From the NCBI GenBank assembly GCA_965649765.1, contig OZ287760.1:868001-932000 (forward strand): a stretch of 64,000 nt of DNA, given 5' to 3'. Position numbers and translations under genes: made by a program. The stretch is from Bispira polyomma. Taxonomy: Eukaryota. A model generated the notes under the pieces. The model was not told the origin of the DNA. It saw only the letters and a program-made list of their open reading frames with translations, and ran no database searches. Shown here in pieces: positions 8,081 through 45,889 of the stretch (its first letter is position 1; the number at the start of each line of letters is the position of its first letter).

Positions 8081-8091
8081 TCAGATTCATG

Positions 8092-22464: not shown

Positions 22465-22817
22465 TCTAGCAAGGTGACGTAGTCTAACTGGTGTAGCAAA
22501 ATCCATCATCCTGTTATTTGCTTATTTTCCACTGTCATGAAATTCTTCCCCCTAAATTAAGTCCACTTTTCTTCAAGCTCAAGCTCATGGAGGGATGATG
22601 GATCCTTAGGAAGTGCACTTTTCTTCTGTTCGTGGATTACTCGTTTTACAGATTCCATATTTGCAAGTGCAGCCCTGACTTTCACTGGCACATTATCTAC
22701 ATTGTCAGCAACAATCTGGGATGGTTCACTTCTGGTAGCTGTGGCATGATCCTTCATAGTAGTTTTGACTTTTAACTGCTTGCCCTTTGTTTTTATCACT
22801 ACTGTGGCTATGTTCAC
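22465..22817 (-). pseudogene. MULE transposase fragment (region following the FLYWCH domain)
   Basis: KVKTTMKDHATATRSEPSQIV...VRAALANMESVKRVIHEQK...PKDPSSLHELELEEKWT, then across a break HDSGK*ANNRMMDFAT...LRHLAR, as in animal FLYWCH-MULE transposases. Confidence 0.8.
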
Positions 22818-23905
22818 TTTTACTTATTACAATTATCTAAGGTGAATATTTGGAAGCAGGGAAGCTTTTGATGAAGGTCAATTAATGTTTGATCTCTTTT
22901 GAAACTATTATGCCCTAAGCAGTTATCGAACGTGAATAATAATTGCAATAAAAAAACAATGTCTTTATGGTGGGCAAAATTTATATTGTGGGCAGAAGTC
23001 CTACCCTGTAAAAATGGTTGTGGGCAAAGTTCCTGTGGGAAAAGTCCCTTGTGGGCAAAGTTCCTGTGGGCAAAGTTCCTGGATTCGTAGTTTATATAGT
23101 GACTTGTATTGTGGCTAGATGTATGCTAATGCAGAATGACATTTCTCATCTCCCAGATCCCCAGTCATGTTCTGTCGACAAGCAGTCGACACCCTAGAAA
23201 GATTATTGTTGTGCTATGCGTCCCAATGTCTGAGTTTGGTTTCTGCTCATTTAGATGAAAAGTATTACCAGTTTATCATATGTATAGCTTGCTTTGGGTT
23301 AATTTTGGGAGGGTTCTGAAAAACAGAAAGGCCACTTTTAATGTTGCACTAAAATTACTTTTTGAAAAATAACAGTGTATTACGGGTAATAAAATTACAG
23401 GTAATAAAAAAAGTCCCTTTGTACAGAAAATAAACTTTTTTTAAATATTTTGCCACACTTTTTTGACAGTTTATTACACTTATTAAACATTTAGAATAAG
23501 AATAAGCACTTGATAGTTCATTTTAAGCACATTATATGAATATATATATATATATATTAAATTTATAAATTAAAGAATTTCTGAAGATTAATCACTCTCT
23601 TATCCACTGTGGTATTGGTAAATTACAATTAACCGTTACTGAATGTTTCTTTTCAACTTTGTCTCACACGTAACAAAAGGAATCAACCAAAGGTGATTAA
23701 CTTTCCTAAGCAGTTACCTGAGAAAAGTAAAGAATTCAAAACCTCTTTGATAAACACTTTCCTGAGCAGTCATCTGAGAGAACTAAATCAAAGGCTCTTT
23801 CAGAAACAGTTACATTATCTTTGTAACTTACAACCAGTGTCTTCTCCACTTTGGTTAGCTAAAGGGATTACTTGTGATATATTCATCAAAGGAAATGTGA
23901 ATCCA

Positions 23906-24075
23906 GGAACTTTGCCCACACAGGAACTTTGCCCACACAGGAACTTTGCCCACACAGGAACTTTGCCCACACAGGAACTTTGCCCACACAGGAACTTTGC
24001 CCACACAGGAACTTTGCCCACACAGGAACTTTGCCCACACAGGAACTTTGCCCACACAGGAACTTTGCCCACAAG
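23906..24075. repeat. 17-bp tandem array, ~10 copies
   Basis: Unit ggaactttgcccacaca. Confidence 0.95.
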
Positions 24076-24517
24076 TGACTTTTCCCACAGGAACTTTGCC
24101 CACCACCATTTTCACAGGGTAGGACTTCTGCTCACAATATAATTTTGCCCACCACAAAGACATTTTCTTTATTTATTCCAATTAATATTCACCTTAGATA
24201 ACTGCTCAGGACATAATAGTTTCAAAAGAGATCAAAATTAATTGACTGTCACCAAAAGCTTCCCTGCTTCTTTAGATGTAATTTTCTTGTTACAATTAAT
24301 ACTTCCTTAGATAACTGATCAGGACAGTTATCTAATCAGGATCCTTTTAAAAGAGATGAAACATTAATTGCACTTCCCAAGTTGCACTATATAAAGTATA
24401 TAAGGTTGATCTTATTAGCATTTAATTCATTGTTTATAGATTTACATAGTATTGCATAATAGAAATTATAAAAAACACCAGAGGTGGTCAAAACCTGAGC
24501 TATGATTTATACATGTA

Positions 24518-24698
24518 CAGTTAAACCCCTTTAAGTAGAACTCTATTAATTCAATTTACCTTTTAAGTTGAGCAAAATTGATAGCCCCACGAAGGCCATT
24601 TTTATTCAAATCTACTATCATAATGTTAAGTGGAAATCCTGCTAAAGTAGAAGTATTTTTACTGGTCCCTTGAGGTTCGACTTAAACGGGTTCAACTG
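24518..24698. mobile_element. pogo/Tigger-like MITE inside MULE copy 2
   Basis: TA|cagttaaacccctttaagtagaac ... gttcgacttaaacgggttcaactg. Confidence 0.8.
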
Positions 24699-25299
24699 TC
24701 CTACATTATTTGGGAATGTTCTCAAAGAAGAGGACTTAGTTGTAAGGGTACATTAACCAGACATTTCTATTTGAATGAGATAAGTATAAGTGAACATAGC
24801 CATGGTTATTATTTCATATTTTATTATTATTGTGGGTATAGTTCCTCCCCTGTAAAAATTGTTATGGGCAAAGTTCCTTGTGGGCAAAGGTCCTGTGGGC
24901 AATGTTATTTGTAAGCAAATGTCCTGTGGGCAAAGTTCCGTACTCCAGGATATGTAACAACTTTAACTTTTTATCTACCAAAATATATTCTTTTAAAACA
25001 TTTTAACTTAAAAACACTTTTAAATTAAATATATACAAAAAGTATGGCAAAATCAAGGGGTAATAGGGCAAAATCATACCACCTATAAAAAGTGTGGCAA
25101 AATCATGTGTGGCAAAATTATAGAGAATCGTCATTTTTCTACCACATCTATGTCCTTTTACCAACAACCATTTCTGATGGCCGGTACTAAGTTTTGTCTT
25201 AAATTGACATGGGAAGGAAGGAATGAGGTGATTTACCGTCATCAGGAACCATTACCAAGTAGTTACCTCCGGTGAAAACAAAATGCATCAGGGCCCTGT

Positions 25300-25600
25300 A
25301 AATCAAAACCTTCGTTAAAATGTCGACTAACGAACGTGTAACGACAAAACTACCAGACAGAATCTAAACAACTCTGTGGGTAAATAGAAAACATTGGTTA
25401 GGTTTTTGTTTGTTGATCCTAAACAAAGGTCTAACTGATGTGGTTGTATGGCATCATATAGTGTGGTTATATGGCATCATATAGTGTGGTTATAGTAGAA
25501 ATGTAGAAATTAGGCCCGTTTCAATCAGGGTTGTTTGATTAATTTGAGATTTAAATCATGATTTTTTTTTAACTCAAAAAAATCAAATAAATCAAGGACT

Positions 25601-25640
<40 letters not shown>

Positions 25641-26610
25641 ACATCTTGATCTTTTCAGTGACTTTAATTTTCTAAAAAAAAAAAACGTTTACTTTCTTAA
25701 TAATTGACATTTCAGTTAATAGTGGTAATCAATTCATAAAGTATCATTTGTTTATGTTTGACTCATTAGTTATCCCTTCATAAACTATTAACTGCTTATG
25801 TTGGACTCAATAATGCTGCACTTAAACAATTATTACAGAACCCTTTTTGTGGTGGATGTCATCCTTCTTGTCACTTAATCCTTTCAGAGCACAACCTCAG
25901 CCACTCTTTTTCATACAAATAAACTAAAACTGATCAATAGCTTTTATAAACACACCCCCAGCTCAATGGCCAAGCTTATTAATCCTGTCTAAAAAGAATG
26001 ATCAGTCTTGCTAGTGGAGTATATAATATGTATAGGAAATAATTAAAATGGTCATTAAGCTATTTTTAAGTTCATTTTAAAGTGTCATTATTGCCAGCTG
26101 CTTGTATAAAGTTTTTGTTGTTGTTAATGTATTCAAACAAGATTCACAATAAACATGAAAAATAGTAGTTTTTCACGGCAACACATTATTGTATTGAAAG
26201 AATTAAATAAAATAAATAAATAAAAAAAATCTTTTTTTTTTTTTTTTTTAAAATCATGATTTTTTTTCAACCCTGGTTTCAATAAACACCAGTATTTTAG
26301 ATGTCTTACACAGAGTATTGATCCATTTAGTGCAACAATAAGTTATGGGTATCAAATATTTGAACTTTGAAATATAAGTAAAACACAATGTACTCAAGTA
26401 CATCTCCTGATAAATCTTGTGACCGATATCATGACAAATATGTATGAGTGCATTGGCAAAAACAGGAGAGGAACCAATATCATTTCTATTGATTTTTTTT
26501 ATGGGCTATATTGGATACAGAAGTCAAAATACATTGCATAATTACCATTTTCTTGCTGTTTAGACATTTTACTATTATTTTCATTGATTTTTTTTTATTT
26601 GTGAAAATAT
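25300..26610 (+). repeat. Second copy of the 545-985 dispersed repeat, interrupted by insertions
   Basis: 25300-25400 and 26284-26610 align to 545-650 and 655-985. Confidence 0.75.
25526..26275. mobile_element. hAT-type MITE
   Basis: TIRs cagggttg / caaccctg, perfect 8-bp TSD gtttcaat (25518-25525 / 26276-26283), subterminal aaatcatgatt repeats. Confidence 0.92.
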
Positions 26611-27846
26611 GGTCTAACGAACACCAAACGACAGGGTCTTAGTTGTCGTTCAATTTTGGGGGTTTTGAGGTAATGAGGGTTTCCATTTACAGCCCGTGTG
26701 CGACAGGTCCTGGTGTTCGTTCTCTTAAGTCTCTCGCAATAGGAAATTGTTAGCACAAGAGAATTCTCTGGTAAATGAAATTGTGAAGTTGTCATTAAAT
26801 GCCTAAAAGTAGTCTTTTATGTGTGGGTGTGTTTTAGTGACTTCAGCTATCTTTAAACAACCTATTCTGAAATAATTTCCATCTGTTCATGGAGATAGTG
26901 TGTTCTTTGTGTCGAAATCATTATTAATCTGTTACTGTCACTGTAGTGCGATTCACAATGGCCTATATTGAATGCTGGTCGTCCAATTGATATATGTCAT
27001 ATGTATTGCTTTTTAACTTTTAAAAGCAATTAGAGATAAGTTGAGGAAAACTTTAAATGACTTTAAGTAAACAATGTGCTGTAAAATTTAATAACTGAAA
27101 TGGGTATTGCTGGGTATCTAGTATCATATATTGATCTCTTCGGGAAAATGGATGTCAACGCCTTTATAATAATCTTTATACATTAATCTTATTATCTATT
27201 ATTATTTAATGTATTTACTGGGTATCTAGTATCTTATATTGATCTCTTCGGTTAAATTTATAATAGTTTAAAGAAGTGGTGGAAAATGAATTATGAAATG
27301 TAACTGGTGAAAAAAATCTGTGCTAAAACAATAGATGAAAGTGTTTTAAATCTAAGCTTAAATGCAACAGCAGGTGTCGCGCTAGTTTATCTTGTGAAAA
27401 AAAAAATAATGAACTTACCAATGTTATCAACCATTTATACATACACATATTTTCTGTAATAATCTAAGTAATTTATTGGTATCCTTTATTATCAGAGTTG
27501 ATCATACCACATCACATGTGATGTATTAGAAAATGTCATGCATATGAACAACTCTATTTCAAAAGTTATTTTCTGGGGGTAAATATTTTGAAGAGTAATT
27601 GTAACATTATTATTGGTGTAATAAATTGGATTGTAAGTATGACATACACTTAGGTTAGACAATATAGTATATCTGTAAATGTAATGTGCTTAAATAAAGT
27701 GACTTAAATATAGATAGATTCATTAAGAACTTGCAAAAAAGTAAAACTTACTGGACCTAAAATCCAATTTTAAAAGGATTATGCGTATTTACTGACCAAA
27801 TCAGTAAACATGCATATTTACTGTAACATATATATATATATATGTA

Positions 27847-28347
27847 TGTTGCACCTAATCCATGAAATTGCCCATTTTGTGAAATGGGCAAAGAATTCTC
27901 TTCTTATTTCACAATATTGCAAGTACAGTCGAGTCCCTTTTAGTCAAACCTCAAGGGACCCGAAACACGGTAAATTTCAAATGAAAAGGCCTTTTTGGGT
28001 CTAAAAAGTTGTTCCCATAACAGGGAAAATGACTTAACAGAGTTCTAAAAGGGGTTTGACTGTAAATGTACGAAATTTTAACTTTTCTACAGACAGTGAT
28101 TCAAATATGTGCCTGATGTTTTTTTTTAGACTTTATTTTATTTTTTTAACATTTCTATAACTTATACGTACAAAATAAAACTACTTCCACAACGTAAAGT
28201 AAACATTCCCTTGCATAAAAAGCATTCCTTTGCAGAAAAAACATTTTATTGTTACTTGAATAATTTTTTCCTCATAAGATTGCCTATTTTATGAAATGAG
28301 TAACGTAAAACTTACAAAATTGCCCATTTCACGAATTGGGTGTAACA
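27847..28347. mobile_element. TGT..ACA-ended MITE with nested pogo-like MITE (27926-28062)
   Basis: TA|tgttgcacctaatccatgaaat ... atttcacgaattgggtgtaaca|TA; nested TA|cagtcgagtcccttttag...ctaaaaggggtttgactg|TA. Confidence 0.75.
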
Positions 28348-30144
28348 TATATTTATGCACATAATAGTACTTGGCTACAGTACTGTACTCTTTATTTTTT
28401 TAGGTCTGTTGAAATGATCTGGCTGATCGCATCAAGAAACAAAGTGTCTGCTGAAGCAAGGTGTCACAAGTGGCTGACAAAAACAGGGGGGGGAGCGGCT
28501 GGGATGCACAGATATGGGACGTATATTATCAAGCACAAAAAGACCAAGAAAGCCGTTTGGGATCCTTTTAGCTACAAGCTGCATCAAAGCGAAGAAGAAA
28601 TTACAATTGGGATGGAAAACAACGTCTGGTAGGAGAGATATGATATACAGTGTGTCTGTGTGTGTACAGAAACAGTCGCCATATTTATCTAATGGCCTGG
28701 AGGTATTATCCAGGGTATAAGTGATATATGGAGGCCCTGGAGATCCAGTGGGTATGATGAACACATAACTCCCCACACAGACAACTGGCTGCACCTACTG
28801 ATGACAGAACTGTGTTTACTGTGTGTGTTCAAACCCTGGGGAGGGTTTTGGAGGAGGAACAATGAAGGGCCGTTGAGAGTTATTTTGCAGCAGTGTGGTG
28901 TGTGGGTGTGTGTGGGCTGGAGAAAGTGTACAACAATTCAACTGGCTTGCACCACTGAAATTTCGCTAGGCAACAGTAACAAAAAACAATAAATTTTGCA
29001 ATACATGTTAAAGACCATCAGTCAGTAAACTTCTATAAAAAATAGTGGTGTCATACGAATATATATATATTATGCCCAAAACAATACAAGCAAACACTGC
29101 TTCTCTATTCTAGTATGAGGATTGTTAGGATTACCATCCAAACTTTATTCTTTCCCTGTTTTTTCAAGCCTCATATTCATGGCTTTAAAGAGTTCAGTTT
29201 CAAGTCAAATATTTTAATGAAAAAACAAACTGATGTTCCCCTTTAGCAAAAAGAACCCAGTGTGATTAAAAACAAAATAACTATCTGGAACACTTTAAGC
29301 ACTTTTCAGTTACACTAAACCCTGGCTTTTCTACCGTTTTCCTAATTTGAGAACAACACACTATACTAGCACTAGTGCTGCTTCAGAAAGTAGATTGTGT
29401 ATCGCCTGAATTGTATAGCGTCTGATTCACTTTCTTTGTATTTCACAGATTCAAGCAGTATATTCTGCAGAAGGGGATGTTTGAGTGGATGTTATGTCTA
29501 ACATGTACTATAATACTATATCTAACACGTACTATAATAGTATAGAAAACCTCTATATTATCCAAACTTTTTCAGGGGCTGGTGTATCCTCAGAATACAC
29601 TCCTGCCTAAAAAAACTCGCACTCAAATATAGGTGTGTGTGTGTGGAAAGCCTCAGCAGCAACATGGAAATACAACTACACACTTGTGAAACCATTCTTT
29701 TTAATACAACTTTCAACAGTGAATTCCAATATGTAATCCCGTTTTTCAGAGATATATACGTGTCTTACTTGTACTCACCCCAAACTTGTTTGGATAACAG
29801 AGTTTTTCCTACTGTATACTTTGCGTGTGTGCGTCTCGTCACTCTTCCCTTTTTATTTCAAGAAACAAAAACTATATAAAATTCCTTTTGCCTTCTTGGT
29901 GGTGGTTGTTTTTTGTCATTTTCAGAAATCCGTGAAAGCTCCACACGTAGATCTATTTTGTAATAGTCTTTTTTTTTTTTTTTGTCGAGTCAATTCTATT
30001 CCTTTTATTCAATTCTATCTTTATTCTACCTTATATTTTCATGTTTTTCCTCATTTCATGTATAGTAAAACTCTCCTGCCATCTTGTTTTACCTGACACC
30101 ACTTTGTGTTTTGTTTTTCTCAGTATTGTAGATCTTTGACGACC

Positions 30145-30273
30145 ATGGCAGGTTTTATAACTTTTCTCACCCTTTTGCATTGGTACGATGCCAGCTTTGA
30201 CCAGGCGACTTTTGGCGGCAGCAGGTACCCGAGACGTTCCCCCTACAAGTCTCGATCCGCTCTCCTGGTGGAA
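30145..30273 (+). CDS. Coding exon 1 of orphan low-complexity protein (exon 30124-30273)
   Basis: Acceptor tgttttgtttttctcag| at 30123, strong Kozak gaccATGG, donor GAA|GTAAGT at 30274 (phase 0); encodes MAGFITFLTLLHWYD...SRSALLVE (43 aa). Confidence 0.75.
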
Positions 30274-30424
30274 GTAAGTACAGAGTATATGCCTGATGAG
30301 TCCCGCCCCACAGTCTCACACCCTCTATATAGAAGCCATCACATTGATCCCCCGATACAAAAACAGAAGGGACAGTATAAAATCTTTTGTTTTAGTATAT
30401 TTTCTGAGTCTCTATTAAATTTAT

Positions 30425-30978
30425 ACAATACCACAAGGGGGCCTGTTGTGGCCTGATGGTTAGTAGTAGTGTCTGGTTCACACTGTACAATACCACAAGG
30501 GGGCTTGTTGTGGCCTGATGGTTAGTAGTAGTGTCTGGTTCACACTGTACATTACCACAAGGGGGCCTGCTGTGGCCTGATGGTTGGTAGTAGTGTCTGC
30601 TTCACCCAATACAATACCACAAGGGGGCCTGTTGTGGCCTGATGGTTGGTAGTAGTGTCTGCTTCACCCAATACAATACCACAAGGGGGCCTGTTGTGGC
30701 CTGATGGTTAGTAGTAGTGTCTGTTTCACACTGTACAATACCACAAGGGGGCCTGTTGTGGCCTGATGGTTAGTAGTAGTGCCTGCTTCACACTGTACAA
30801 TGCCACAAGGGGGCTTGTTGTGGCCTGATGGTTAGTAGTAGTGTCTGCTTCACACTGTACAATACCACAAGGGGGCCTGTTGTGGCCTGATGGTTAGTAG
30901 TAGTGTCTGTTTCACACTGTACAATACCACAAGGGGGCCTGATGTGGACTGATGGTTTGTAGTAGTGTCCGCTTCACA
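30425..30978 (+). repeat. 62-bp minisatellite (~9 copies) made of flank plus SINE head
   Basis: Unit acaataccacaagggggcctgttgtggcctgatggttagtagtagtgtctgcttcacactgt; last copy runs into the SINE body. Confidence 0.95.
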
Positions 30979-31115
30979 CGATCACTGGCCTCTTGTCAAA
31001 ATATGTAGATTTTCAACATCCTATTCGTTCCTCCATGTGGGGAAAGTTTGTCATGTTAAAATGCCCGTCTTGACATGTGACCCTTAGCTGTAAATATAAA
31101 GTAAATAACTAAAAA
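30933..31115 (+). mobile_element. SINE (V-domain-like family), internally deleted
   Basis: atcactggcctc...ttcctccatgtggggaaagtttgtca...tgacccttagctgt. Confidence 0.75.
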
Positions 31116-31157
31116 TGAAATTTTCTTTAATAATTAATGTAGATATCTATATAAATA

Positions 31158-31334
31158 CAGTGGAACCCCATTTAAGTCAAACTAGAAGGTACTGTCGAAA
31201 TCTGTTCTATTTAACAATTCTACTTATCAGGTTAAATTATCAATTAGAAATATAGCTGTGGGATCTTAAAAGGTAACTTCTACTTAACAGGTAATTGCAT
31301 TATCATAGTTCCACTTTCAAAGGGGGTTTAACTG
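31158..31334. mobile_element. pogo/Tigger-like MITE
   Basis: TA|cagtggaaccccatttaag ... aaagggggtttaactg. Confidence 0.7.
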
Positions 31335-32552
31335 TTTCAGTTAATATCGAAGCTATGTTTTGGGTGTTTACATGAATTTATTTTTATATTATTACAGTGT
31401 TTATTATCATCCTAGTTGTTTGTAGCTTTTGGGTCTGCGTTATATGGGTAAACCCACGATTGTCTATATAAACCTCCCACCCTATAAAAGTGTAGTGACA
31501 AAATATTAATATGACTGACAAAATCGCCCAAATCAATGATCAAATCACTACTACTACTGGCTTGGCTTTTTGTAAAACTTTTTCTAAAAGCTTAGCCAAT
31601 CAGATTGTTTGAAACAAATGTTTCTAGCCAATCCAATTGATGGAAAATAAAATAAAACAGTAGGCATCCTTGAGAATACCAGCCCAGGGGATGTATTTTG
31701 ATATCAAGGCCTCCACTAAGCACATACACGTTTGCCTTTTACTACTGCGATCTGACCCAGACATTAATCATTCATTTTAATTAAAGTAGTAAATGAAGGT
31801 GTATAAGAAAAGTTTTAACAACCAATTTTCTTTGAACTCTAATATTTGTACCTAGAGACTGTTTTACATTTTTATAGTGCATTTGTATTAATGTTATTCT
31901 GTATTTTTACATTGTCGTGGAGAAATACTCTTGCAACTAGCAGCAAAGTATTTCACAGCAACATCATCATTACATATAGAAATGGCACGGCTTGGTATGA
32001 CATCGTCCTAAGTTATGTTTTCATGATGGTTCTCAAACGGTGCTGTATATTGTTGTTGCTCATCGCCTCTTAAATCTGTATTGTGTGGTCTGTGTAAAGT
32101 AGTGTGGAGTGTTATGTCTCTGTTCAGTTTGCGATATATAGCGGTCGACACACAATTCGGTACATTGCGCGCACAAGACATTTTAAGTGTTCGACGAAAC
32201 TTACGATATTTACCGAATATATTTCACCCGCAATACTTTTAAGATTTCTTTCTATAGTTCACTCCCTTGACTCCTGGGGCCAGTTTATTTCAGTAAGTAT
32301 AATTGTTGGCACTGCATGTGGTCTACATCCACACATAAAGGACTATAATCTGCTAACACATGGCTGTTTGTTCTTCTTGTTCTGTACAGATCCTCAAAAA
32401 GTCTTTCCAGGTGTATGGACTCGATCCAACGGTAAGTTTATTAGTTTTAGGAGCACTCTGAAAAATCAGGGCCATGGGGTGGTCTTTGAGGGAGGGGTGG
32501 GGTCTTTCAGTTGTGTAGTGGTAGTTACACTGACCTCCCACCTTGTTCGGGA

Positions 32553-32757
32553 CTGGCCGTGGTGGTGGCCTGGTAGTTAGAAGCATCTGCTTTTAACAAA
32601 TCACTGGTCTCTTACCTCTGTGGATCGAATCCCACATATTCCTCCATTTGAGAAAGTTTATCCGGTTTCCCCTACTGGTTTCCTCCACCACTCATCCTGG
32701 CCATCACCATATGACCAAAGATGTTGAAAACCAAGTAAAACCTAATAAATTCAAATT
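32553..32757 (+). mobile_element. tRNA-derived SINE, near full length (V-domain-like family)
   Basis: A-box tggcctggtagttag, B-box ggatcgaatccc, core gagaaagttt...ggtttcctccacca, tail catatgacc...tgttgaaaa; further partial copies follow at 32770-32910 and 32990-33090. Confidence 0.8.
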
Positions 32758-33411
32758 CCCACCTTGTTTTGTTACATCAAGTAGGAAAGTTTGTCGGGAG
32801 TTTGCCACAGGTCAGTGGTTTACAGTGGCTTCTGCACTGGTTTCTGCCATGATTAAATCTGGCCATAGCAGTATAACCTGAGCTGTTGACATCTGCTTAA
32901 AAACCTAACCTTGTTAGGTTGACATTGTGTATGTTCAGAAAAAGATTGCCAGTTGGGCTTGATGGTAGGCCGGTGAGTTTTGCACAGAGGACAAAAACTT
33001 TGACCAACCCTGTTTTCATTTCCTCCATTAGTAAAACAGTCCTGGCGCTTTCAACACAAAACATGTTGAAAATAGACAATAAACAAAGTTTTTTTTCTTA
33101 TAAACTATAAGTAATAAACCAGAATAAATAAGTATAGTTACAATTTTAATTTGAGCAACTGGGTTTTCTTATTTTATAAATTTAAAAAAAAATTACAATA
33201 TGTACAGCATAACCCTCTATTTTTTCCCAGAAGTTTGGATGATAAGAGATCATACTGCACATATCCTGATTGTATAAATACTATATATTACCTTGTGTAT
33301 ATTATTATATACTATTTTTTTGTTTTCATTTATTGCGCCACCCAAAAAATGGTTTGTGTGTGGTGGTATTGCGATGGCCTGTACTTAATGAATCTTTTGT
33401 TTCTTTTTCAG

Positions 33412-34575
33412 CTTCTCGCCAATGCGACGGCCCCTAGGCGCGGTCGAGGCGGAAATCGCCGTCCTCGCCGCAATGTCGCCGCTCCTCGCCGCAATGTCGC
33501 CGCTCGTGCCACGGCTGGTGCTGCGCCCCCAGTCCCGGTCCCAGCTCCAGTCCCAGTCCCACCCCCGGTCCCAGCTCCAGTCCCGGTCCCTGCTCCAGTC
33601 CCAGTGCCACCCCCGGTCCCAGTGCCACCCCCGGTCCCAGTGCCACCCCCGGTCCCAGTGCCACCCCCGGTCCCAGCTCCAGTCCCGGTCCCAGCTCCAG
33701 TCCCAGCTCCAGTCCCAGCTCCAGTCCCAGCTCCAGTCCCGGTCCCACCCCCAGTCGTGGCTCCAGTCGTGGCTCAACAACAACCTCAACATCAGGCAAA
33801 TTTATCTGGCAGTGAGGTAGCGAGGTTGGATAGGGAGGTTGTCCCCACTTCTCCTCCATCTCTCTCCCCCACTGCGTCTGTGTCAGATGCGGTATTCACT
33901 CCAGATACCTACCCACACCAACAGGAGTCACTGGATCAGTCGGTGTTCGAGGACTCCTCGTCATCGGATGGTTTAGTGGCTCGTGTTGGGTCTTCTCTGG
34001 CGTCCCCCCCTTCTTTACAAGTGGAGGAGACGGTGGAGGAGGACCAGGCTGCTCTGCAGGTGAAAGCAGTGACCAAGTCTCCCCCTAAGCCATCTCGTGT
34101 GGTATCGGGGTTGGAGGCGGGGTTGCTGTCTTCTTCTGTGGTGCGCCCTGGTGTGGTTGGGGAGCTGGTTGTGGATCAGCCGGATCTGTCCAGACCTGGA
34201 CCTTCTTGGCTTGGTTTGCATCAACTACCTTCCCCCAACTCCCCCTCATCTTCTAAGGGGTCAACATCATCACCCTCTAAAACAACTCCCAAAAAAAGGA
34301 AGAGGTCTTCCGAATTGGACAACCTGTTATCCAATGCGGAAGGCACTCCCTCCAAAGCTGCCAGGCTGAGCATGACCAGGGAAGAGCGTTCCCGTAAGTC
34401 ACCTGAACGTTATCAGGATCCCTATAGTCCATTCTGGTACAGGGTGAAAGATGTTATGGCAAACACAACACGTTTGGTGCAGAATAATACTGGAAGGCTC
34501 CGTTGGCATGATAAACGTCTTGAACGTTTGGAGGCGTATTGTAATTTAGATTATTTGCCTCGTTATAAATGCTAG
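33412..34575 (+). CDS. Coding exon 2 (terminal) of orphan Pro/Ser-rich protein, 387 aa
   Basis: Acceptor tcttttgtttctttttcag| in phase 0 with exon 1, abrupt GC rise exactly at 33412, long open frame continuing ~800 nt beyond the repeat to TAG; PKKRKR at 34288-34305. Confidence 0.82.
   Translation, partial: LLANATAPRRGRGGNRRPRRNVAAPRRNVAARATAGAAPPVPVPAPVPVPPPVPAPVPVPAPVPVPPPVPVPPPVPVPPPVPVPPPVPAPVPVPAPVPAPVPAPVPAPVPVPPPVVAPVVAQQQPQHQANLSGSEVARLDREVVPTSPPSLSPTASVSDAVFTPDTYPHQQESLDQSVFEDSSSSDGLVARVGSSLASPPSLQVEETVEEDQAALQVKAVTKSPPKPSRVVSGLEAGLLSSSVVRPGVVGELVVDQPDLSRPGPSWLGLHQLPSPNSPSSSKGSTSSPSKTTPKKRKRSSELDNLLSNAEGTPSKAARLSMTREERSRKSPERYQDPYSPFWYRVKDVMANTTRLVQNNTGRLRWHDKRLERLEAYCNLDYLPRYKC
33526..33772 (+). 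repeat. Coding tandem repeat (6/12/18-bp units) encoding (PV/PA/PP)n
   Basis: ccagctccagtc and ccagtgccacccccggtc units; all unit lengths are multiples of 3. Confidence 0.95.
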
Positions 34576-35386
34576 AGAAGTTTACATGCCATGTCAAGTG
34601 AATGGCCCGGAAGGGCTGTTTAACCCTCTTGACACTGTTCAGCCTGGCAGCACACAACCTGAACTGGGGGCTCTTTAAGAGTAGCCTTCTGTGATGTGAA
34701 ATATGATTTTGTTGTGACTTTGATATGTACGTATATATATTACACATTGCATTAACAAACAACAGAAGCACTTATTCTAGCTTGTCAGGGGTTCTTATAG
34801 TACAGACAACTACAGATATTAAATTACAGGTCACGTAAAAATTGATGTATCTACCTATTCTTAACATCTACTGTTTAACCTTTAAATGTTATGAAAACCT
34901 ACTGGTGAACCTTGTTATTTTGTTTTGATATTTATATGCATTTGTTTCAAAATGTCTGGAAAGGAATGTATATCTTTAAATCCGGTTTCTTGAACGTTTA
35001 TGCTCTCGGTTTTTTTTTTTAAAACAAACCGTTTTAGCGCCTTGGTATCTGAAATTTAATATTTAACGCCAACGAAATAACCCTAGACTTTTGTTTGAAT
35101 GTATTGTAGTGTTTTAATGTTTATTTGCGTCTTTGGAAAAAATAATTTTTTTGAATCACTTGATTTTTTTTTTTTTTGTTCATAACAGTTGCATGTGGTT
35201 TTGTTGTGACCACTTGTTATGTTGAAATGAAGACTGTGTACATGCCCCATTGTCCAGAACCCCTCAAACCAAGTCACCGCCCCCGGGAAAAGGTTATGTG
35301 AGTTTTTCTCCATTTACTTATATTTATAACCAAATGTTTTGTGTTCTGTGCAAAGAAAAGTGCAACTCAAGGGAAAAACCTAAGTA

Positions 35387-35542
35387 CAGTGAAAACCTCT
35401 TTTGAGTAGAAAGATTTACTTGTTTATAGGTGGAGAACAATTAGTAGTGTTGTCCCACAAAAGCCTTAGATTTCATATCTCGACCCTGTGTAAATCATGT
35501 CCAAGTAGAGCCTTGTCTGCTGGTCCTTTTGTGATTCGACTG
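35387..35542. mobile_element. Degenerate pogo/Tigger-like MITE
   Basis: TA|cagtgaaaacctc ... ttcgactg|TA. Confidence 0.5.
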
Positions 35543-35563
35543 TAAAGAACCACAGTCTCATGA

Positions 35564-35569
35564 AATAAA
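35564..35569 (+). promoter_or_regulatory. Possible polyadenylation signal of the orphan gene
   Basis: First AATAAA I find after the stop codon, followed by a T/GT-rich tract. Confidence 0.3.
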
Positions 35570-36283
35570 CCTTTTTCAGGTCTGTTGTTAAACGGTTATT
35601 TTAGACCGGTACCTTAGTTTAGTTTTTTCAAGTGTCTGCACATTTAATGAATCGTGTCCACAATGATCAGTGTTAGGTGAAAAGATTGTAGCAAATATTA
35701 GTGTGTGAAGTTTAAGGAAGATCCTCTTCAGAGTTTTAATAATTAATTAAATTTGCAATTAATAAGTTTAAAAAAAAATGTGTCTAAATTTAGTCCACTT
35801 TTTCAGCAATATTGATAGGACAAGTTCCCGTTGAATATTTTTACAAAAAAAAAATCCCTGAAAATTTCATTCAAGTTGTATGGACTGTGTCGATATGGTT
35901 AGGGTTCTGATATTGGTATACCGTGTTTTCCCCAATATATGAAAGGTCTGGTGTTACATAAAAAGTTTCTGTATACTGAATTGTTTCAGTGGGTTTTAAT
36001 GGCTGCTATACCTTTGCAGTAATCATAAGGCTCTCGAGCACTATTTCATCCTAGAATTGTTTAAACCTTTTTTTAACCCTTTCGACCTGTAGGTTGTTTA
36101 CTAGCAGCCAAGCACCCTAAAAATATTTTTTTATTAAATGTAAGTCTAATATTATTTTGTGTATTATTTTTTTTCACTTAGATCAATTTAATCAGGTTTA
36201 CTGCCCTGAAATGTTAGGTTTTATTGTCTGTGAAATTGGACACTTTTGTTGTGGGTCATGTACAGGATGTCATAAAAATATAT

Positions 36284-36380
36284 TTGGCCCCAAAGAATAC
36301 GTCTTAGGCTTAAATCAGTATACTTTTGTGCTAGATTTAAGCCTAAGACCTGGCTAGGTCCTTTCGTGAATATGGGCCCA
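36284..36380. mobile_element. Mini Harbinger-like hairpin element
   Basis: gtcttaggcttaaatc / gatttaagcctaagac inverted pair; end tttcgtgaatatgggccc. Confidence 0.55.
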
Positions 36381-36516
36381 GTCCTATATTAAATTTAGTT
36401 ACCATTTGACCTAGGTTTTTCAGTAACTTTTAATGTGCAACACTGTCGTCTTACTTTTACCTGATAAGTATATGATAATGCAGATCAGAACCTAAATTTT
36501 GTTCACCTATGGTTAA

Positions 36517-36779
36517 CCCTTTCAACCCCGAGGTTTTGACCCAGTGGCAATTGTTACTCCCAGATCCCATGTCTGTCGGCAGGCAGTCAACACCCCCAAA
36601 ATATTATTGTATTTTCCTTCAGTTCCTCGCAATAGGAAATTGTCAGTACAACAGACTTCCCACTGAATTCCAGAAGTTGTCAGCGGTGTGTGTTTTAGTG
36701 ACTCCAACTATCTCGTAACCCATAATCCCAAAAATTTCCTTCAGTTTCTAGCGATAGTTTTCTCCCAGTGGCAAAAGGG
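36517..36779. mobile_element. piggyBac-like MITE
   Basis: TTAA|cccttt ... aaaggg|TTAA; related fragments at ~8517-8790, 26640-26900, 46424-46850 and 47500-48020. Confidence 0.85.
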
Positions 36780-37090
36780 TTAAGGTTCCTGACATTGTAT
36801 GGACAGCTTAAATGTTTGACCCATATTATCTGGACTTTTTGGAACATCTCCAACATATCAAGATATTGTTTTCCTTGCTAATAGCCTGACTAATTTATTA
36901 TAGACATTACTGTTGGTCATTTGTAAAATAAGATTTAGAAACCTGGAGATCAATCAGTAGATATGACGTGATTCAATGGATATACAATGTATTAAATAAC
37001 ACTGATTATATTTTATCAGGGAATAGAAAACAGAAAATCATTCTGATCTTTAAAAATAATTGTCTTAAATTGCAGATACTTTGTGTGTAC

Positions 37091-37660
37091 ACAGTGAGTT
37101 TATTTCTCTTTGAGTAAGTTGAGGTGCTGTGGTGGCCTACTGGTTAGACAGTGAGTTTATTTCTCTTTGAGTAAGTTGAGGTACTGTGGTGGCCTACTGG
37201 TTAGACAGTGAGTTTATTTCTCTTTGAATAAGTTGAGGTACTGTGGTGGCCTACTGGTTAGACAGTGAGTTTATTTCTCTTTGAGTAAGTTGAGATGCTG
37301 TGGTGGCTTAGTGGTTAGACGGTGAGTTTATTTCTCTTTTAGTAATTTGAGGTGTTGTGGTGGCTCAGTGGTTAGACAGTGAGTTTATTTGTCTTTTAGT
37401 AATTTGAGGTGTTGTGGTGGCTCAGTGGTTAGACAGTGAGTTTATTTGTCTTTGAGTAAGTTGAGGTGTTGTGGTGGCTCAGTGGTTAGACAGTGAGTTT
37501 ATTTGTCTTTTAGTAATTTGAGGTGTTGTGGTGGCTCAGTGGTTAGACAGTGAGTTTATTTGTCTTTGAGTAAGTTGAGGTGTTGTGGTGGCTCAGTGGT
37601 TAGACAGTGAGTTTATTTGTCTTTGAGTAAGTTGAGGTGTTGTGGTGGCCTAGTGGTTAG
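37091..37660 (+). repeat. 57-bp minisatellite (10 copies) made of flank plus SINE A-box
   Basis: Unit acagtgagtttatttctctttgagtaagttgaggtgttgtggtggc(c/t)(t/c)agtggttag; last copy continues into the SINE. Confidence 0.95.
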
Positions 37661-37825
37661 AAGTGTTGGCTTCATAATCACTGGTCACTCAACAATATGG
37701 ATTTTAATTCTGTTTGTTCATGTGGAAAAGTTCGGTACTTGTCAGTAGTTTACACAGTTGTTTCTGCACGGATTTCTACCACCATTGATTCGAACATGTT
37801 AAAAGCCACATAAAACTCAAATAAT
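37634..37825 (+). mobile_element. SINE (V-domain-like family)
   Basis: gtggtggcctagtggttagaagtg...aatcactggtc...catgtggaaaagtt...gtagtttacacag...atttctaccacca...atgttaaaagc. Confidence 0.78.
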
Positions 37826-39936
37826 TATTAAAAATTATTTGAATAGTTTGGTCATTATTAAACATTAAGGATTAATTTGAAAGACTTTAAATGAGATAGA
37901 AGTGTCGTAAAAGTTTTAAATCTAATTGTGCTGAAATGTATGCTGTTCTTTTTTAAACTCCAGTGGCCCTGTGTTTCACTTTGTCCATACTTTAGGTATT
38001 TGCCGTTTTAACAGCCAGCTTTTTCATCGCAACTTTGAAATATTGGAATTAGATTCAACAATTTCTCAAGAAGGATTAGTTAACATATATCTTAAAAATA
38101 AATTTAGTGATCTGTGTAAATGATTTAACAGTATTTCCAAGGTATTAGAAACTCTAGTGTAAGTTTTTATGATAATTTCTTTGTGCAAAGTATCGGGAAC
38201 TAAAAACTGCTGTAACACTCTAATTGTTGACTGCTGTTCTACAATATACTTAAGTGATTAAAGTCATAATTTAATGTTGAAAATAGAAGGCCTTTTTAGG
38301 GCAACTTCTGCAATCATGATACAAGCTAAGCTGTAGCAAGTGACCGGATATCACCCAATTAAATTCCTCCCCAGAACAATACAATTTGAAAATGTCTGTG
38401 CGAAGTATCATGTCCTAAAGACTCTTTGAGCAGCCTGATTGTTTACTGCTGAACTGTAATGTCCTTGAGGGATCCAGATAATTAAAGGCCCTGAATCAGT
38501 AGCTGTAGAACATGTAGTTTGTGCATCGTTAGTTGACAATCTGAAGAGTAAGTGCTTTGAACATTGGTAGATTAAGAAGTCAAAAAATTCACTGTTCACA
38601 AGAACTAAATGAAACATGCACAAAAATGGTGTTTTACAGTAAATGTGTGTCCGTCTTTCCTAGGTGTAGTGATTTGGGTACTAGTACAATGTTTTGTTGG
38701 TTTTTAATCTTAAGTCTATACATAAAAAAGTGATCAATGAGTCAGGTTTTTTTTAAAAAAAAAACATGTACAATTGTGATGGAGTGTGAATATGCTTGAT
38801 AGAATTGCATACTATTTTAAATTGATAATATTACAGCATTAATATTTGTAATGGGTAAATATAACTAAAGAATGAATTTAAAACTTAACCAATTGAAGTA
38901 ATAGTATTTGTCTGGGTTTTTAATGGGAATTATCAACACACCAGACCGCTAAGTTAAAAGTGTTTACAGGTTAGGGGTTTTTCCTATAGTTTCTGGGTAT
39001 GGCGACTTCACACGTTGCTGTTTTAGCTTTTAAGGGTCATTTATAAACACAATTATATTTTTCCACTTTCTTACTGTGGGGCTAAATGGTCAACTAAAAA
39101 AGGTGAGGTGATTAATAGTTTGCAATTCTGCAAAAGTTCTATTAGTACACAGCTATGTGCAAGTGGGTACACTGCAGTGGCAGGTAAGTTGAATTCCTTA
39201 CAATTGTTAACTAGTTTGCACATTGTGCAAGTCTGCGCATGTGCACACTAGTTGATATCAGCGGTAGAAAGGTAGAAACATGGTAGAAAACGTGTCGACA
39301 GCCTAATCTCAGAACTGTTCGTGAACTGTGGTCTCAAATGTGCATCGAGTCTAGAGTTTGGACTCTTGTGCTCCGGTTTTCTTTTTGGGGTAGATTCTGA
39401 TAACGAATCCGCGAATATTTCTGTTATATTTTTTTGGTCAATTACATTAGTATCCCACGGCGGTGGCCTCGATTTCGAAATATTGTAGTTTATAGCTGTA
39501 CTTTATTTGCAGGGACGTCTTTAATGCGCAAGTGGGTGCGCTGTGTATAAAAGCATGGGGATTTCCCTGCAATAACCACAACTTTAAACCAAAGAAATAA
39601 AATGTAATTTAAAGAAATTGCATCAAATAATAAAGCCACAATCTTCAATGGTTTATAAAAAATGAGGTTTGCAAAGTTCTATTTTTTTTAAATATATTAT
39701 TACTACCGCAGATTTGAGTAATGGGTGATAATGGAAGTTCCTATGTATATGGATAGATCGTTTTCGGAATGCATTTCGACCGCCAAGTAGTGACTGGGTC
39801 ACTATTTTCGGAATCGACAGCAAACGTGCTGGTATGGCTAATCCTTGTATTTTCGGACTACCTCATATTTTCAGCCCATATCATGTTTTGGGTCTTAAAT
39901 AGAGGTTAAATTGTCTGTAAACGAACAGATACTTTA

Positions 39937-40168
39937 TTGCTTGGGGTCATAATTCGGCCACCTTTCATAAATCGGCTACCTGTCATAAATCGGCCACCAT
40001 ACAATAAATGTGTCGTAACTTTGAATTAACAATTCTGTACTTCCTTGAATATTGGTATTGTGTTCTATTTCAATCCTATTGTCTATTTTGTACCAAGATT
40101 AGGAAAAATTTCCATTTAAAATGTGGCGGCCAATTTACAACTGGCGGCCGAATTATAACCACAGGCAG
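39937..40168. mobile_element. TA-flanked palindromic MITE (copy 2, inverted relative to 6729-6964)
   Basis: Ends ggcggccgaattataaccacaggcag|TA; interior is the reverse complement of copy 1. Confidence 0.85.
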
Positions 40169-41589
40169 TAGTTAATGTTGGACTTATTCAAATGAACCAG
40201 CATCAGTTTATTTTGAAACTTAATTATAAAAAATAGCCTGAAAAGCAATTGAAACCTTGAGTGTTTAGTATTGGCGTGATAGGCTCAAAATAGGTGAACC
40301 TTCATACGTGGCCATTTGCCGCCTTTTTCTTGTTTGGTAAGTTGTTTCCGTTATTCAGCTCGATTAATCCCTTTTTCCCATGCTAAACTTAACCTTAAAG
40401 TCCAAAATTTGCTTTGAATAATGACTTCTGGGTAACTCAAATGATCGAGGATTAACTAAAGATTACAATTTTATAAACTGTTAGGGATTGAGTTCAGCTA
40501 CTTTTGAGTATTGTCCATTTGAGTTTGACCAAATCCACTGTAATTAGAAATGTAATGTTAATTATGTTAGGATTATATTGAAGGACTTTTGCAAAGTACA
40601 CGGCTGGCGTTTCTATTAATATAGTATGGCTACCTCTTGTTATAATGCCACCAGTCGAAAATGTGTCAAATGGTAGATTTTAATCATAATTAATCCATAT
40701 TTTAATTGTTTGCAAATTTTTGTTCTTTTTTCACTGTTTCATGGTAAATCTCAAACTTGATTATGCGGCCCAGAAATTGGACCTCAAGCAAGTGCATGGC
40801 CTCAGGCATGTGCATAGCAAACTAGTCAGCGGCCTACGGCTGCTCTTTTCTTGTTTTGCAAATGCCTCCAATTCTACAAACGTATAGTAGTACATATATG
40901 GAGAAATCACCAGGGTACCACAAGTTGACTGGTGAGTGGTGAAGCATGTTTTTGTGGGTGAGCACGGTTTCAGTCAAGTCTGTCAGTATATTTGAGATGT
41001 TCAATCAAACCCCCTACACCCCTATGCTGTTTCCACAGTGTACCAGTTTGTTACTGTGTAAACATTGCTAGATGAATCAGGTGTGTGGTTACACGACAAT
41101 GGTACACAAAACACCTCGCGTCACACCAGTCTGTAGACCTGGCTTTATAGTCGCCACCGTAGTCGTAATGCAATCGGCCAGTAGTTAAAATTCCAAAATA
41201 TACAGCGGTACTAGTTTGAATGAAAATTGATCTATATATTATCAAATTATGACCCGAGTGACCACGATTTTAGGGTGTTAGTGATGATAGATCGACCCAA
41301 AAGTGTACTCGTCCAACCATTGTCGAGCAGTATCTGAATAGAACTGCTATCACAAATTCTGAATTCTGTTGCTTCCATGTTGATCTAGAATTTTTTTTTC
41401 TAGTATGAGGCCCCATATATTGCTAAATGTTTTATGAACAATCTTTGCATGCATGCAGTTCTATAAAGTAGCCTACAGTAAAGCATTCACTAGAGTTACC
41501 TTTTGGAGAAGATATTGACTCCTAAAACAAACACCCAAGCTTTGAAAAGTGACGATAAACCCCCAAAACTTTACTTGACCTAATTTGAG

Positions 41590-41927
41590 GGAGAGAGAGC
41601 TTGATATATAAATGTATGTGTACATATCTACACCGACTTGTAGCGGGGTATAACAGAACTCAAGAGCGTGCAGTACACAAAGTATACACACATAGAGTAC
41701 TCATACTTTCCTCACAGTACACACACACACACTCTTCTTTATGACACCAGCACAAAAAGCAGTAACACAGACCAGCAGTTGGTCAAGTCTTACCCATTGA
41801 CCAGATCACGCCACCCCCCTAGTGGGGGGAGGGGAGGTGGGAGGGGGAGGTTGGGAGGGTGGGGGGGTTGGGAGGGTGGGGGGGTTCTACATGCACACTA
41901 CACATAGCACACACATGCACTACAAAG

Positions 41928-41961
<34 letters not shown>

Positions 41962-43280
41962 TGGAGCTACACACTTGTGTAGAAGGGATATAGGTCATTT
42001 AAAAAGGGTTCAAGATGCTACACAGTCCTACTGAAACGGTCTAAAAAAAGAAGGAATATGTCTATTCTACCCAATACCGTTTGATTTCCAAAAGGGTACA
42101 TATACATCTTATTGATTTATATACCTGGTGTTGGTTCTATTAACATAATAGAAACATAAACTGCACATACCATCCATTATTACTCATTAAAAATGCATAT
42201 TTTATACATACACATCTATATACATACAACAAATTAGATGATTATTACTAATATACAGAGCAAGCCATTTAAACAAAAAACTTGACATAATTTAAAAAAT
42301 AATCACAAAAATAATAATCAATACCAATAAAGACACAATATCAACCTAAAATACACAAAAGTTAAAAACACAATTGCAAACACTTGAGTCTATTTTATGT
42401 GTACTCTTTAACAGTTTTCATGAATTACTAAAAATCCTTTGTGGTTTATTGCATGTTAATTTTGTGTATATGTTGTTTTTTGGGGGGGGGGAATTAGACA
42501 GAACACTACTGTAATGCTTCATTAGGTCAAGTTTTCAAACTTCTCAATTTTGTAGTCCAAGTTTCATAGGTTCTTAAACTGATAGTTTTTAATGTTAAAA
42601 AAACCCAGAAATGTACAGTAGTGTTTCTGTTAGTAAACTGTACATTTGATTATTCCTAATACATGTAAATGTATCTTTTTGGGACAAATTCAACTATACT
42701 TCAAATCCTACAGTAGTGAGCCCTTTTTAATTGACCTGTGTGTATCTGTTCTGGAAGCATGAGTGTCTGCTGCTGCATGGTTGGGGGTCACTTCTGAGTG
42801 TGCATCTGTGAGAGACTATATAGGGTTGTGTGGTGCTAGTGGGTCGTTGCTGACTATGTATGGTTGTTTGCTGCTAGTGGGTCGTTGCTAAGTGTGAGAG
42901 GTCGTCTGACTATGTATGAATGTTTGTGGTTGTCTTTTGTCACTTTCTACCACAGGGTCCCTGGCTCAATGTATTTAATATAAGCAATGTAGCTGGTGTG
43001 TGTGTTAGTAGGTCTTGTAGACACCCCCTCCCCCCCTGACCCTCACAGGGTCTGGGTGGTCTGGCATGGGGGGATTTGGCGGCTGTTTGGGCTGTGTAAT
43101 CTGCTAGCACTGGTGCTGATGTTGTAAAGGGTGGGCGTGTGCTTGTGTGTGTATCTGTGAGGGATGTGTGTGTACTCTGCGTGTGTCTACATTGTATACT
43201 GTTCTCTTGAGTTCATCTTTTTATACCCCTACAGTCTGATCTAGGTGTAAAAATATATATATATATATTGGCTCTCCGAC
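41590..43280. repeat. Diverged inverted repeat pair (arms ~41590-41940 and ~42975-43280)
   Basis: Left gggtataa..gaactcaagag..cagtacacaaagtatacacacatagagtac..cctcacagtacacacac is mirrored on the minus strand of the right arm. Confidence 0.65.
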
Positions 43281-43359
43281 TAGACATAGCTAGTCCCCTC
43301 TTGACGTAGAAGTTAGAAAACCTTCTAGGCAACTTCTATGACTTGCCTGAACAAAACAA

Positions 43360-43590
43360 AGGGCTGTATGGGCCTAGTGCTGGAAAGTTCCACCTCACAA
43401 TCACTGGCCCCTCCCCAAATTGGGTTTGAATCCTGTTTGGACCTTTGTGTAGGAAAGTTTGTTGAGTATTTTCTGTAGGTTGGTTGTTTAGAGTGCTTCC
43501 GCACCTGGGTTTCGTCTACCATTAAATTTGACTGCCGTGATAATGACCTAAGCTGTTGAAACTGATGTAAAAAAAACACTTAAATTCAAA
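43360..43590 (+). mobile_element. SINE (V-domain-like family), near full length
   Basis: gggcctagtg...acaatcactggcccc...gggtttgaatcc...ggaaagtttg...gggtttcgtctacca...tgacctaagctgttgaaa. Confidence 0.8.
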
Positions 43591-44299
43591 TACATCGCTT
43601 TACATATAGTCAGTTCAAAATTGATAAGTGCACGATTTGACAGACATCTAAGCTTTTGTCGGTGCAAGAAAAACAGACTGTTGATTCGTCGGAAATTCGT
43701 TGGAGTCGATTATTTTGCCAAAATTATCGTAATAGTATAAATATACCAGATTATCCCAGAAATAAACAAACGTGCATGGAAACAAATGTTTATCCGTAAA
43801 AAAGATTTCAAATCCATGATCGGAATTGGTCAGAAATCTTCTCCAATAAATCATTTAAAAAAATAGAGCAATCTCTAATATCTAGTATAAACAGGTCTAT
43901 TTAGCTAGTGCAACTTACAGTGTGCCGATATGCGCTTGTGACTACACATACAATGCATATTGTCCTGATAACCTCTAGTACTGAAGTAACAGTAGCATTG
44001 TCCCCATACCTGCCAGTTATAAGGACTATAATCAGTGCTCACTTAAAATGCTTTGTGAATATTGCTCATTGTTAGTAAAAAAAAGGATGGACTGGTTCTG
44101 CTACAGGATACTACAGGTATGACAAGACTTTGGTAGTTTTTAATTATTCATTACTCTGATGTTTTCAGTTTAAATTAATAATGGCTACTTGTTTGGGCCA
44201 TTTTAGGACACAGATCACTGGGGTGAGTATAGTACAATAACAGTTTGTGTCTTTATACATTTTAAAGGTGAGATTTTAGTAGATATAAGGTATGTGATC

Positions 44300-44820
44300 A
44301 ACAATTAGACATTGCAGTGGGCTTTCTAACATTGCAGGGGGCTTTCTAACTTTGCAGTGGACTTTGACATTTGTTCATTTAACTTGCGTTTCTTCTTTAC
44401 AAAAGCTGTAGCAAATGTCGTTGCACAGCCGTGAATTTGTAAACCTTCCATACAATTTCCCTACATTCCTTTCAATTTCCTTACATTCCTTTCAATTTCC
44501 TTGCACATCAGTGAATTTTCTTGTATTAATTCCAATTTCCATACACTGCAGTGAATTTACATTCCTTGTAATTCCTTTCATTCCTTGTAATTTCCTTACA
44601 CTACAGTGAATTTCTTTACATTGCTTGTAATTGCCTTGCCCCGAGGTGGGCTTCCTTCAATTCATTTTCTTTCATTGTAGTCATTTTTCTTACCTTTTAG
44701 TGAATTTCCTCACATTCTTTGTAATTTCCTTACATTGCAGTAAATTGTCCTACACTGCAGTGAATTTCCTTACATTTCTTCCAATTTCCTTACACTGCAG
44801 TGAAATTCCTTGCATTCTTT
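44300..44820. repeat. Degenerate short repeats (aatttccttacattgcagtg)
   Basis: Motif recurs more than 15 times with variation. Confidence 0.75.
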
Positions 44821-45215
44821 GCCTTCCTTCCTTGCCCCGAGGCGGCCCTCCTTCCTTCCTTGCCCCGAGACAAGCTTCCTTCCTTCCTTGCCCCGAGACA
44901 AGCTTCCTTCCTTCCTTGCCCCGAGACAAGCTTCCTTCCTTCCTTGCCCCGAGACAAGCTTCCTTCCTTCCTTGCCCCGAGACAAGCTTCCTTCCTTCCT
45001 TGCCCCGAGACAAGCTTCCTTCCTTCCTTGCCCCGAGACAAGCTTCCTTCCTTCCTTGCCCCGAGACAAGCTTCCTTCCTTCCTTGCCCCGAGACAAGCT
45101 TCCTTCCTTCCTTGCCCCGAGACAAGCTTCCTTCCTTCCTTGCCCCGAGACAAGCTTCCTTCCTTCCTTGCCCCGAGACAAGCTTCCTTCCTTCCTTGCC
45201 CCGAGACAAGCTTCC
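44821..45215. repeat. 28-bp minisatellite, ~14 copies
   Basis: Unit cttccttccttccttgccccgagacaag; a diverged precursor copy sits at 44632-44658. Confidence 0.97.
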
Positions 45216-45889
45216 ATACACTGTACTGCACCTAACTCACAAACCAACAATTTTATACAGATCATACAAAATGTCCCTGCAAACAGACATTTATGCCCCC
45301 AGTATTGATATAATCTTATTTTGATATATAATATAAAAATCCTTCCAATGTTCAAAGCACCTATTCTTCAGATAGCCAAGTACCGACACACAAGGACATG
45401 TTCTGCAGCAAATGATTCAAGGAATTCATTTTCATGATCCCACAAGTATTAATTACAGAATGGTAGATAATAGTTTTAGGAAGACTTAAGAATAGCCATA
45501 TTACTTTTTGACATGACTTTTGACATATGTACTACAGCAGCTTTAAGATGATCAATATTTGCAATTTAATCTAAAGAAATTCAGTTGATGTTGTCCCTAA
45601 TGTTTTGATTTGTTGACCAATGTGATCTGTGATACAGCTTAAGGTTGCCACCGGAAGTTAAATGCATAATAATGTTTTTCATAATTATTGTCCTAGTCCC
45701 GAGATAAGTGTACTTGCTGTAGGTTCGTGATTTACAATGCATCAGCACTTGTTTCTTCCTCAATTGTAAGTGGCTGTCATGATATGAACCAAGCTGTCCA
45801 AAGCGACTACTGTTGATTAATGGGATCCATAATACAACTTAAGGTTACACATGGAGTAAAATGTTTAATGTGTTGGCAGTTGTTTACGT

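Follow-up and report, generated by a model that had tools for sequence, protein, structure and literature searches.

SINE-derived minisatellites, tandem arrays built from short interspersed elements (SINEs), are already known, and the two arrays treated here, in a 64,000-nt stretch of the 1.035-Gb genome of Bispira polyomma (contig OZ287760.1, here C13, positions 868,001 to 932,000 of the forward strand; hereafter the window), are further examples. The SINE-derived satellites (sSat) of squamate reptiles have units shorter than the SINE and one extended terminal unit that continues into it, as the window arrays do; a gecko variant joins the 5′ part of the element to ~30 nt of unknown origin, comparable to the flank-plus-head units described below, and, as here, units are more alike than SINE copies and unit number varies, in reptiles among orthologous loci (PMC10702118). 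The sSat units measure ~70-290 nt (PMC10702118), however, whereas those of the window measure 57-62 bp, hold only the A-box and have spread as passengers of a large duplicated block instead of forming a satellite family. In humans 23% of minisatellites derive from transposable elements and are considered to start from short direct repeats at their flanks or from slipped-strand mispairing, as is proposed here; 136 cases with a partial Alu repeated 5′ of a full Alu share the plan of the window arrays, which differ from them in SINE class and lineage and are present in 18 paralogous copies that serve as natural replicates (PMC3389668). The ‘mirage’ minisatellites of amphioxus likewise copy a boundary in tandem, multiplying a landmark motif while the terminal unit alone continues; their length varies between haplotypes, they are not known to have a function, and the landmark is a splice boundary rather than the SINE junction seen here (PMC3087553). 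Bivalve tandem SINE arrays are direct and enclosed by target-site duplications, which invites comparison with the head multiples discussed below, but their units are at least 150 bp, against nt 1-65 of the element here; according to the authors, arrays of small fragments would have escaped detection in their survey (PMC11481361).

Both arrays are variable-number minisatellites of flank plus decayed SINE head, likely formed after insertion by ordinary replication slippage or unequal exchange and probably functionless. The features concerned are as follows, in window positions, with Tandem Repeats Finder abbreviated TRF:

30424..30979, forward strand: array 1, a 62-bp minisatellite (TRF: period 62, 9.0 copies, 94% matches) in intron 1 of a predicted orphan gene.
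30933..31110 (3′ limit approximate), forward strand: SINE copy 1, the last head plus a decayed, internally deleted body with a broken B-box (profile match 30936-31056, model positions 2-109; alignment).
37091..37665, forward strand: array 2, a 57-bp minisatellite (TRF: period 57, 10.1 copies, 95%), ~2.5 kb beyond the stop codon of the orphan gene.
37636..37830, forward strand: SINE copy 2, the last head plus a nearly full-length decayed body with a broken B-box (profile match 37637-37830, model positions 2-226; alignment).

According to the unit lists, the nine units of array 1 consist of ~13-14 bp of flank and ~48 bp of decayed SINE head, with a mean identity of 94% over the first eight; the ten units of array 2 consist of 32 bp of flank and 25 bp of head, with a mean identity of 92%. 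In both arrays the SINE body is reached from the terminal unit only, an arrangement that any tandem duplication across a boundary gives. Both qualify as minisatellites (head-to-tail units of 10-100 bp, 62 x 9 and 57 x 10) and both fit the sSat plan, the unit being part of a SINE and the terminal unit running to the SINE end. The preliminary description of the window had proposed this plan of flank plus head with the last unit entering the body, and TRF and the unit lists confirm it. A SINE profile built from 56 copies, used for the last units and the bodies, aligns with the last units of both arrays from model position 2 (E-values 2e-13 and 3e-39), so that the units are homologous to the SINE head, as had been claimed; the claim of two separate origins also stands, given that flanks, periods and breakpoints all differ.

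The units of both arrays carry mutations private to the SINE copy at which they lie, and therefore amplification followed insertion and decay, in agreement with the order favoured by the preliminary description; an RNA template could not provide these private mutations along with flank. The history would comprise four steps. Two SINE copies would have inserted and decayed, as seen in the alignments; 57-62 bp across each 5′ junction would then have been duplicated once. For array 2 the repeats, as found in most paralogues, are TAGACAGTG in the flank before the array and TAGA-AGTG on the SINE side, and the duplication likely took place between them; their homology amounts to 4 exact bases (chance ~2%), or to 8/9 with one gap in most paralogues. 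The seeds would predate the spread of a block of >80 kb to 18 places, which is observed for array 1 and suggested by a tree for array 2, and each copy would thereafter have gained or lost units independently, as the copies themselves display.

The evidence for the last two steps comes from the surroundings of the arrays, in which further features are needed:

281..63599, no strand assigned: portion of the dispersed repeat (>80 kb) in which both arrays lie and which continues beyond both window ends.
30145..34575 (30145-30273, 32390-32431, 33412-34575), forward strand: predicted three-exon orphan gene, Pro/Val-rich (open reading frame (ORF), with splice sites read from the sequence).
32550..32757, forward strand: separate SINE insertion of a sister subfamily, with an unamplified head and an intact B-box.
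43360..43592, forward strand: separate full-length SINE insertion with an unamplified head.

The SINE at 32545 and the orphan gene's last exon, used as queries, each returned near-identical copies including their flanks. Nineteen regions were fetched and two dropped (C12 31.3 Mb and C9 7.8 Mb; exon fragments only); the other 17/19 align with the window in the same order for kilobases, at ~80-95% identity, and occupy, with the window, 11 contigs. Five copies, when extended, match almost all of the window; the copy on C4 shares window coordinates -2540 to 79474, and other pairs reach further, with differing boundaries. The colinear paralogues and extended matches therefore place both arrays inside a dispersed block of >80 kb with 18 copies in all (the window and 17 paralogues); the flanks, which the preliminary description had called unique, recur in the genome with the rest of this multi-copy region. 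Array 1 has 2-6 units in 14/17 paralogues and is deleted in 3/17, so that where present it always has at least two; array 2 has one unit in 4 paralogues, 2-3 in 12 and 14 in one (two counts of these units differ by one in a few copies). Across all copies the span is 2-9 units for array 1 and 1-14 for array 2, bearing out the expectation of copy-number variability. In a tree built on 1.7 kb outside the arrays, the single-unit copies of array 2 are nested within multi-unit clades, and the 10- and 14-unit copies each have a short tip of their own (0.03 and 0.015 changes per site); expansion and collapse are therefore recurrent. The heads at 32553 and 43360, previously taken for the unamplified state, are other insertions and not ancestral; the single-unit state of array 2 is instead that of the 4/17 paralogues. 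The 18 paralogues thus form a natural series in which, at two loci, minisatellites arise, grow and collapse. Contigs from two samples (three sets, one study) over 29900-31700 are fragmented and mix paralogues, and none spans array 1.

The host repeat occupies ~0.865-0.967 Mb of C13, and pairwise spans suggest a length of >100 kb; four near-identical copies lie near contig starts. It may be a giant mobile element or a segmental-duplication hub. No ends were found, the boundaries varying among copies, the breakpoints of the window copy show no inverted repeat, and no mobilising enzyme was found in the repeat, only nested retroelement ORFs. An 8-kb insertion at window position 8413, present in 3/5 extended copies (C1, C10, C14) and absent from the window, contains an ORF fragment which we take to be tyrosine-recombinase-like.

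That the host repeat itself is prone to tandem duplication, through its mode of spread or its location, with the SINE heads as bystanders, is a tentative alternative, compatible with post-insertion slippage or exchange. The comparison rests on 40 evenly spaced 10-kb stretches (400 kb), in which any 15-mer recurs within 30-60 bp at a background rate of 0.23% (0.13-0.34%), against a locus-level rate of 0.64% in the window; TRF arrays cover 12% of the window and 7.6% of the sampled genome. About a dozen further minisatellites in the window have no relation to SINE heads, and at least two of them vary in length among paralogues; examples lie at 15288-16010, 22006-22216, 23904-24103, 44822-45215, 53798-54175 and 62382-62930. 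Against this, a single window is compared with a wide spread among sampled stretches, and ends of the host repeat were not found. The best reading of two arrays both striking SINE heads is coincidence, given a block and a genome that are each rich in tandem repeats.

The SINE family is dispersed, 200-260 bp long, with a sharp 5′ end and at least three subfamilies in alignments. Its head 15-mer has 26,899 exact genome copies, 20,148 from the young subfamily and 6,751 of older type; target-site duplications of 7-16 bp flank 6/20 young copies, and visual inspection of the two copies in the window revealed none. ARAGORN reports no tRNA gene in the window and Rfam no tRNA match in 30300-44000, the scanned copies all being decayed. 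The family may resemble the mollusc HCD SINE superfamilies (Meta, V, CORE, Deu, MD), which are marked by a conserved central domain. Its promoter motifs were scored with the consensus TRGCNNARYGG for the A-box and GWTCRANNC for the B-box. In array 1 0/9 units fit the former, a mutated A-box, TGGCCTGATGG, being shared by 8/9 and the ninth carrying one more change, whereas 7/10 units of array 2 fit; the ‘9-10 tandem A-boxes’ of the preliminary description therefore hold for array 2 and not for array 1. Its degraded B-box is borne out, both bodies having 2 mismatches to the consensus, and a motif search finds no forward-strand B-box within ~300 bp of either array. Aligned copies of the family carry the A-box TGGCCTAGTGG and the B-box GATCGAATC or GTTCGAATC; one form of the box motifs appears in PMC3245943.

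The preliminary description had regarded the SINE 5′ junction as a recurrent hotspot; as an account of the two arrays, a junction specially liable to breakage or fork stalling, for instance through bound TFIIIC/Pol III, and giving rise to flank-plus-head arrays again and again, is improbable. The test searched the genome for exact recurrence of the head 15-mer within 30-60 bp, with one control word each for the SINE centre and tail. Of 110 head matches, the 100 listed, classed by hand, give 34 loci (23/34 read in sequence, the rest classed from the listing); these comprise flank-plus-head arrays, arrays of short period within the head, and older heads into which a young SINE has inserted. At periods 30-60 older-type heads form arrays at 8/6,751 against 7/5,543 for the centre, a ratio of 0.94 (central 15-mer of older subfamilies: 8 loci, 7 independent; tail: 1/3,915). 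The ratio is 1.64 (p=0.38) once six heads of other SINE families are added (periods at least 30), and 0.9-1.1 for all heads against the centre. Although at least five flank-plus-head arrays exist elsewhere in the genome, the flank is part of the unit in 5/8 head arrays, where chance predicts 5.2. With no excess over the centre or over the genome background, and flank inclusion at chance level, the hotspot claim fails for the flank-plus-head architecture; moreover, the window promoters are broken, the units were copied after decay, and at periods 61-90 a flank occurs in only 2/24 loci among the matches listed. Arrays are more than 20-fold fewer in the young subfamily (3/20,148) than in older heads (23/6,751), a comparison valid for the 30-60 search only. 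Young SINEs also lie, similarly oriented, inside older SINE heads, with clusters around nt 40-50 and 64-66; targeted SINE-into-SINE insertion finds no support in their number, the ~8 nested cases at 30-60 equalling the random upper expectation of 8.1, though their positions cluster.

Several results weigh against ordinary slippage or exchange as a full account, some of them in favour of the junction. Over all periods and head types, older-type heads exceed the centre 2.7-fold (23/6,751 vs 7/5,543, p=0.017) and the tail 13-fold (tail 1/3,915, p=0.0004), the head excess lying in periods 15-28 (9 vs 0 at the centre, p=0.005); the GC-matched background is lower, at 0.11% (8-9 GC, 17 arrays); and arrays occur at 2/4 heads in the window against 0/31 in the 400-kb sample. 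Exact 15-mer tests skip decayed heads such as the two in the window, the upstream repeat of array 2 is eroded in the window copy itself, and the junction homology of array 1, only 2 bp (chance 16-19%), is uninformative. A true 5′-end hotspot of another architecture, described below, also exists. At head-array rates of 0.2-1%, ~1-19 64-kb windows with such a pair of head arrays are expected genome-wide; two in one window are rare, yet within reach of a scan that chooses coincidences. The short-period (15-28 bp) arrays lie in the A-box region, and an 18-bp unit arose at two loci; extra seed repeats were rejected as the cause of the short-period excess, as the counts of seeds of at least 3 bp (6 vs 15 and 14) are similar after allowing for fewer starts.

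The test thus separates two things that the preliminary description had run together: flank-plus-head arrays, which are at background level, and a stereotyped flank-free head multiple with fixed breakpoints. A search with the head 15-mer at 61-90 bp returns 228 matches, of which the 100 listed cover 41% of the genome; among the matches listed, 24 loci remain after multiples of shorter arrays are removed, and in 22/24 of these (19/21 after merging paralogues) the units begin at SINE nt 1 and end at the G-run that directly precedes the B-box. The units of this class have a period of 64-75 and essentially no flank (nt 1 to about 65), whereas a random duplication would start at nt 1 about one time in ten. 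The overall rate at 61-90, ~0.22%, is modestly above the sampled background of 0.135% (0.08-0.19%), the sole control at these periods; it is therefore the fixed breakpoints, not the overall rate, that mark a hotspot for the flank-free class, and at the level of the family the earlier hotspot claim survives in part in this form. Many head multiples at these periods belong to the young subfamily, and flank-free multiples sampled on C1-C4 have 2-15 units. Among 20 loci fetched, 6 have 2-15 heads and one body inside a single target-site duplication and 3, two of them identified by script and one by eye, are nested insertions after which the rest of the older SINE follows, the other 11 being assigned to neither class; the junction G-runs are 6-17 long, and SINE nt 1-13 are similar to the stretch directly ahead of the B-box.

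The class is compatible with re-priming in reverse transcription, retroposed read-through of nested copies, or later slippage; template jumping by R2 has been described in vitro (PMC11194090). It is conceivable, if doubtful, that the family multiplies its own promoter head on insertion: the cDNA would re-prime on the G-run before the B-box and recopy nt 1-65, or nested read-through would be retroposed, to give an (A-box head)n plus one intact body in a single target-site duplication at ~50 loci, with the window arrays as bystanders of a different, post-insertion kind. If true, this would be a route from single-headed to multi-headed SINEs and satellites; if the flank-free class forms in retrotransposition, it would offer a genomic view of SINE promoter-module duplication and bear on dimeric SINEs and SINE-derived satellites. 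No description of head-only multiples was found in the literature searched; subscription papers and the supplements of PMC11481361 and PMC10702118 lay outside the search. A 42-bp SINE-head satellite also occurs on C2 at 2.24, 2.78 and 3.82 Mb; two of these loci hold at least 48-58 units, and the third has a short copy.

An insertion-linked origin of the window arrays themselves, by nested SINE-in-SINE insertion or by multiplication of the head on insertion, is distinctly unlikely. Nested insertions and head multiples within one target-site duplication seem to act elsewhere in the family, and the 13-14 bp flank of array 1 has the size of a target duplication (6-18 bp in bivalves, PMC11481361); however, the insertion-linked class has no flank, the 32-bp flank of array 2 is too long, and decay mutations private to the resident copy recur in the units, although later homogenisation could mask an older seed.

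The preliminary description had further suggested that the arrays might act as a TFIIIC-bound chromatin boundary. TFIIIC boundaries are described in PMC3245943, and yeast TFIIIC has nanomolar affinity for the B-box and micromolar affinity for the A-box, barely binding A-box-only DNA (PMC11724288). The intact B-box expected of an ETC-type boundary is replaced by 2 mismatches in both bodies, and the A-boxes of array 1 are all mutated; the lack of a B-box, together with free unit loss in paralogues with an open last exon, makes a boundary role unlikely as far as sequence can tell. That the arrays would be functional, tunable boundary or promoter elements for the predicted orphan gene is very improbable: their positions within intron 1 and beyond the stop codon of a gene with purifying selection on its last exon, the A-box kept in 7/10 units of array 2 and the minimum of two units in array 1 are outweighed by the missing forward-strand B-box, the weak binding of A-box-only DNA in yeast, the single unit of array 2 in 4 copies with an open last exon, and the deletion of array 1 from the C8 47.7 Mb copy, whose last exon is still open.

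Purifying selection on the predicted last exon is read from its sequence, the exon being open in 14/17 paralogues with a pooled ratio of nonsynonymous to synonymous polymorphism (pN/pS) of 0.38 over 9 copies. A search of two exons gave no Pfam match. The predicted gene, carried by the host repeat, has a variable Pro/Val repeat and two alternative C-terminal types.

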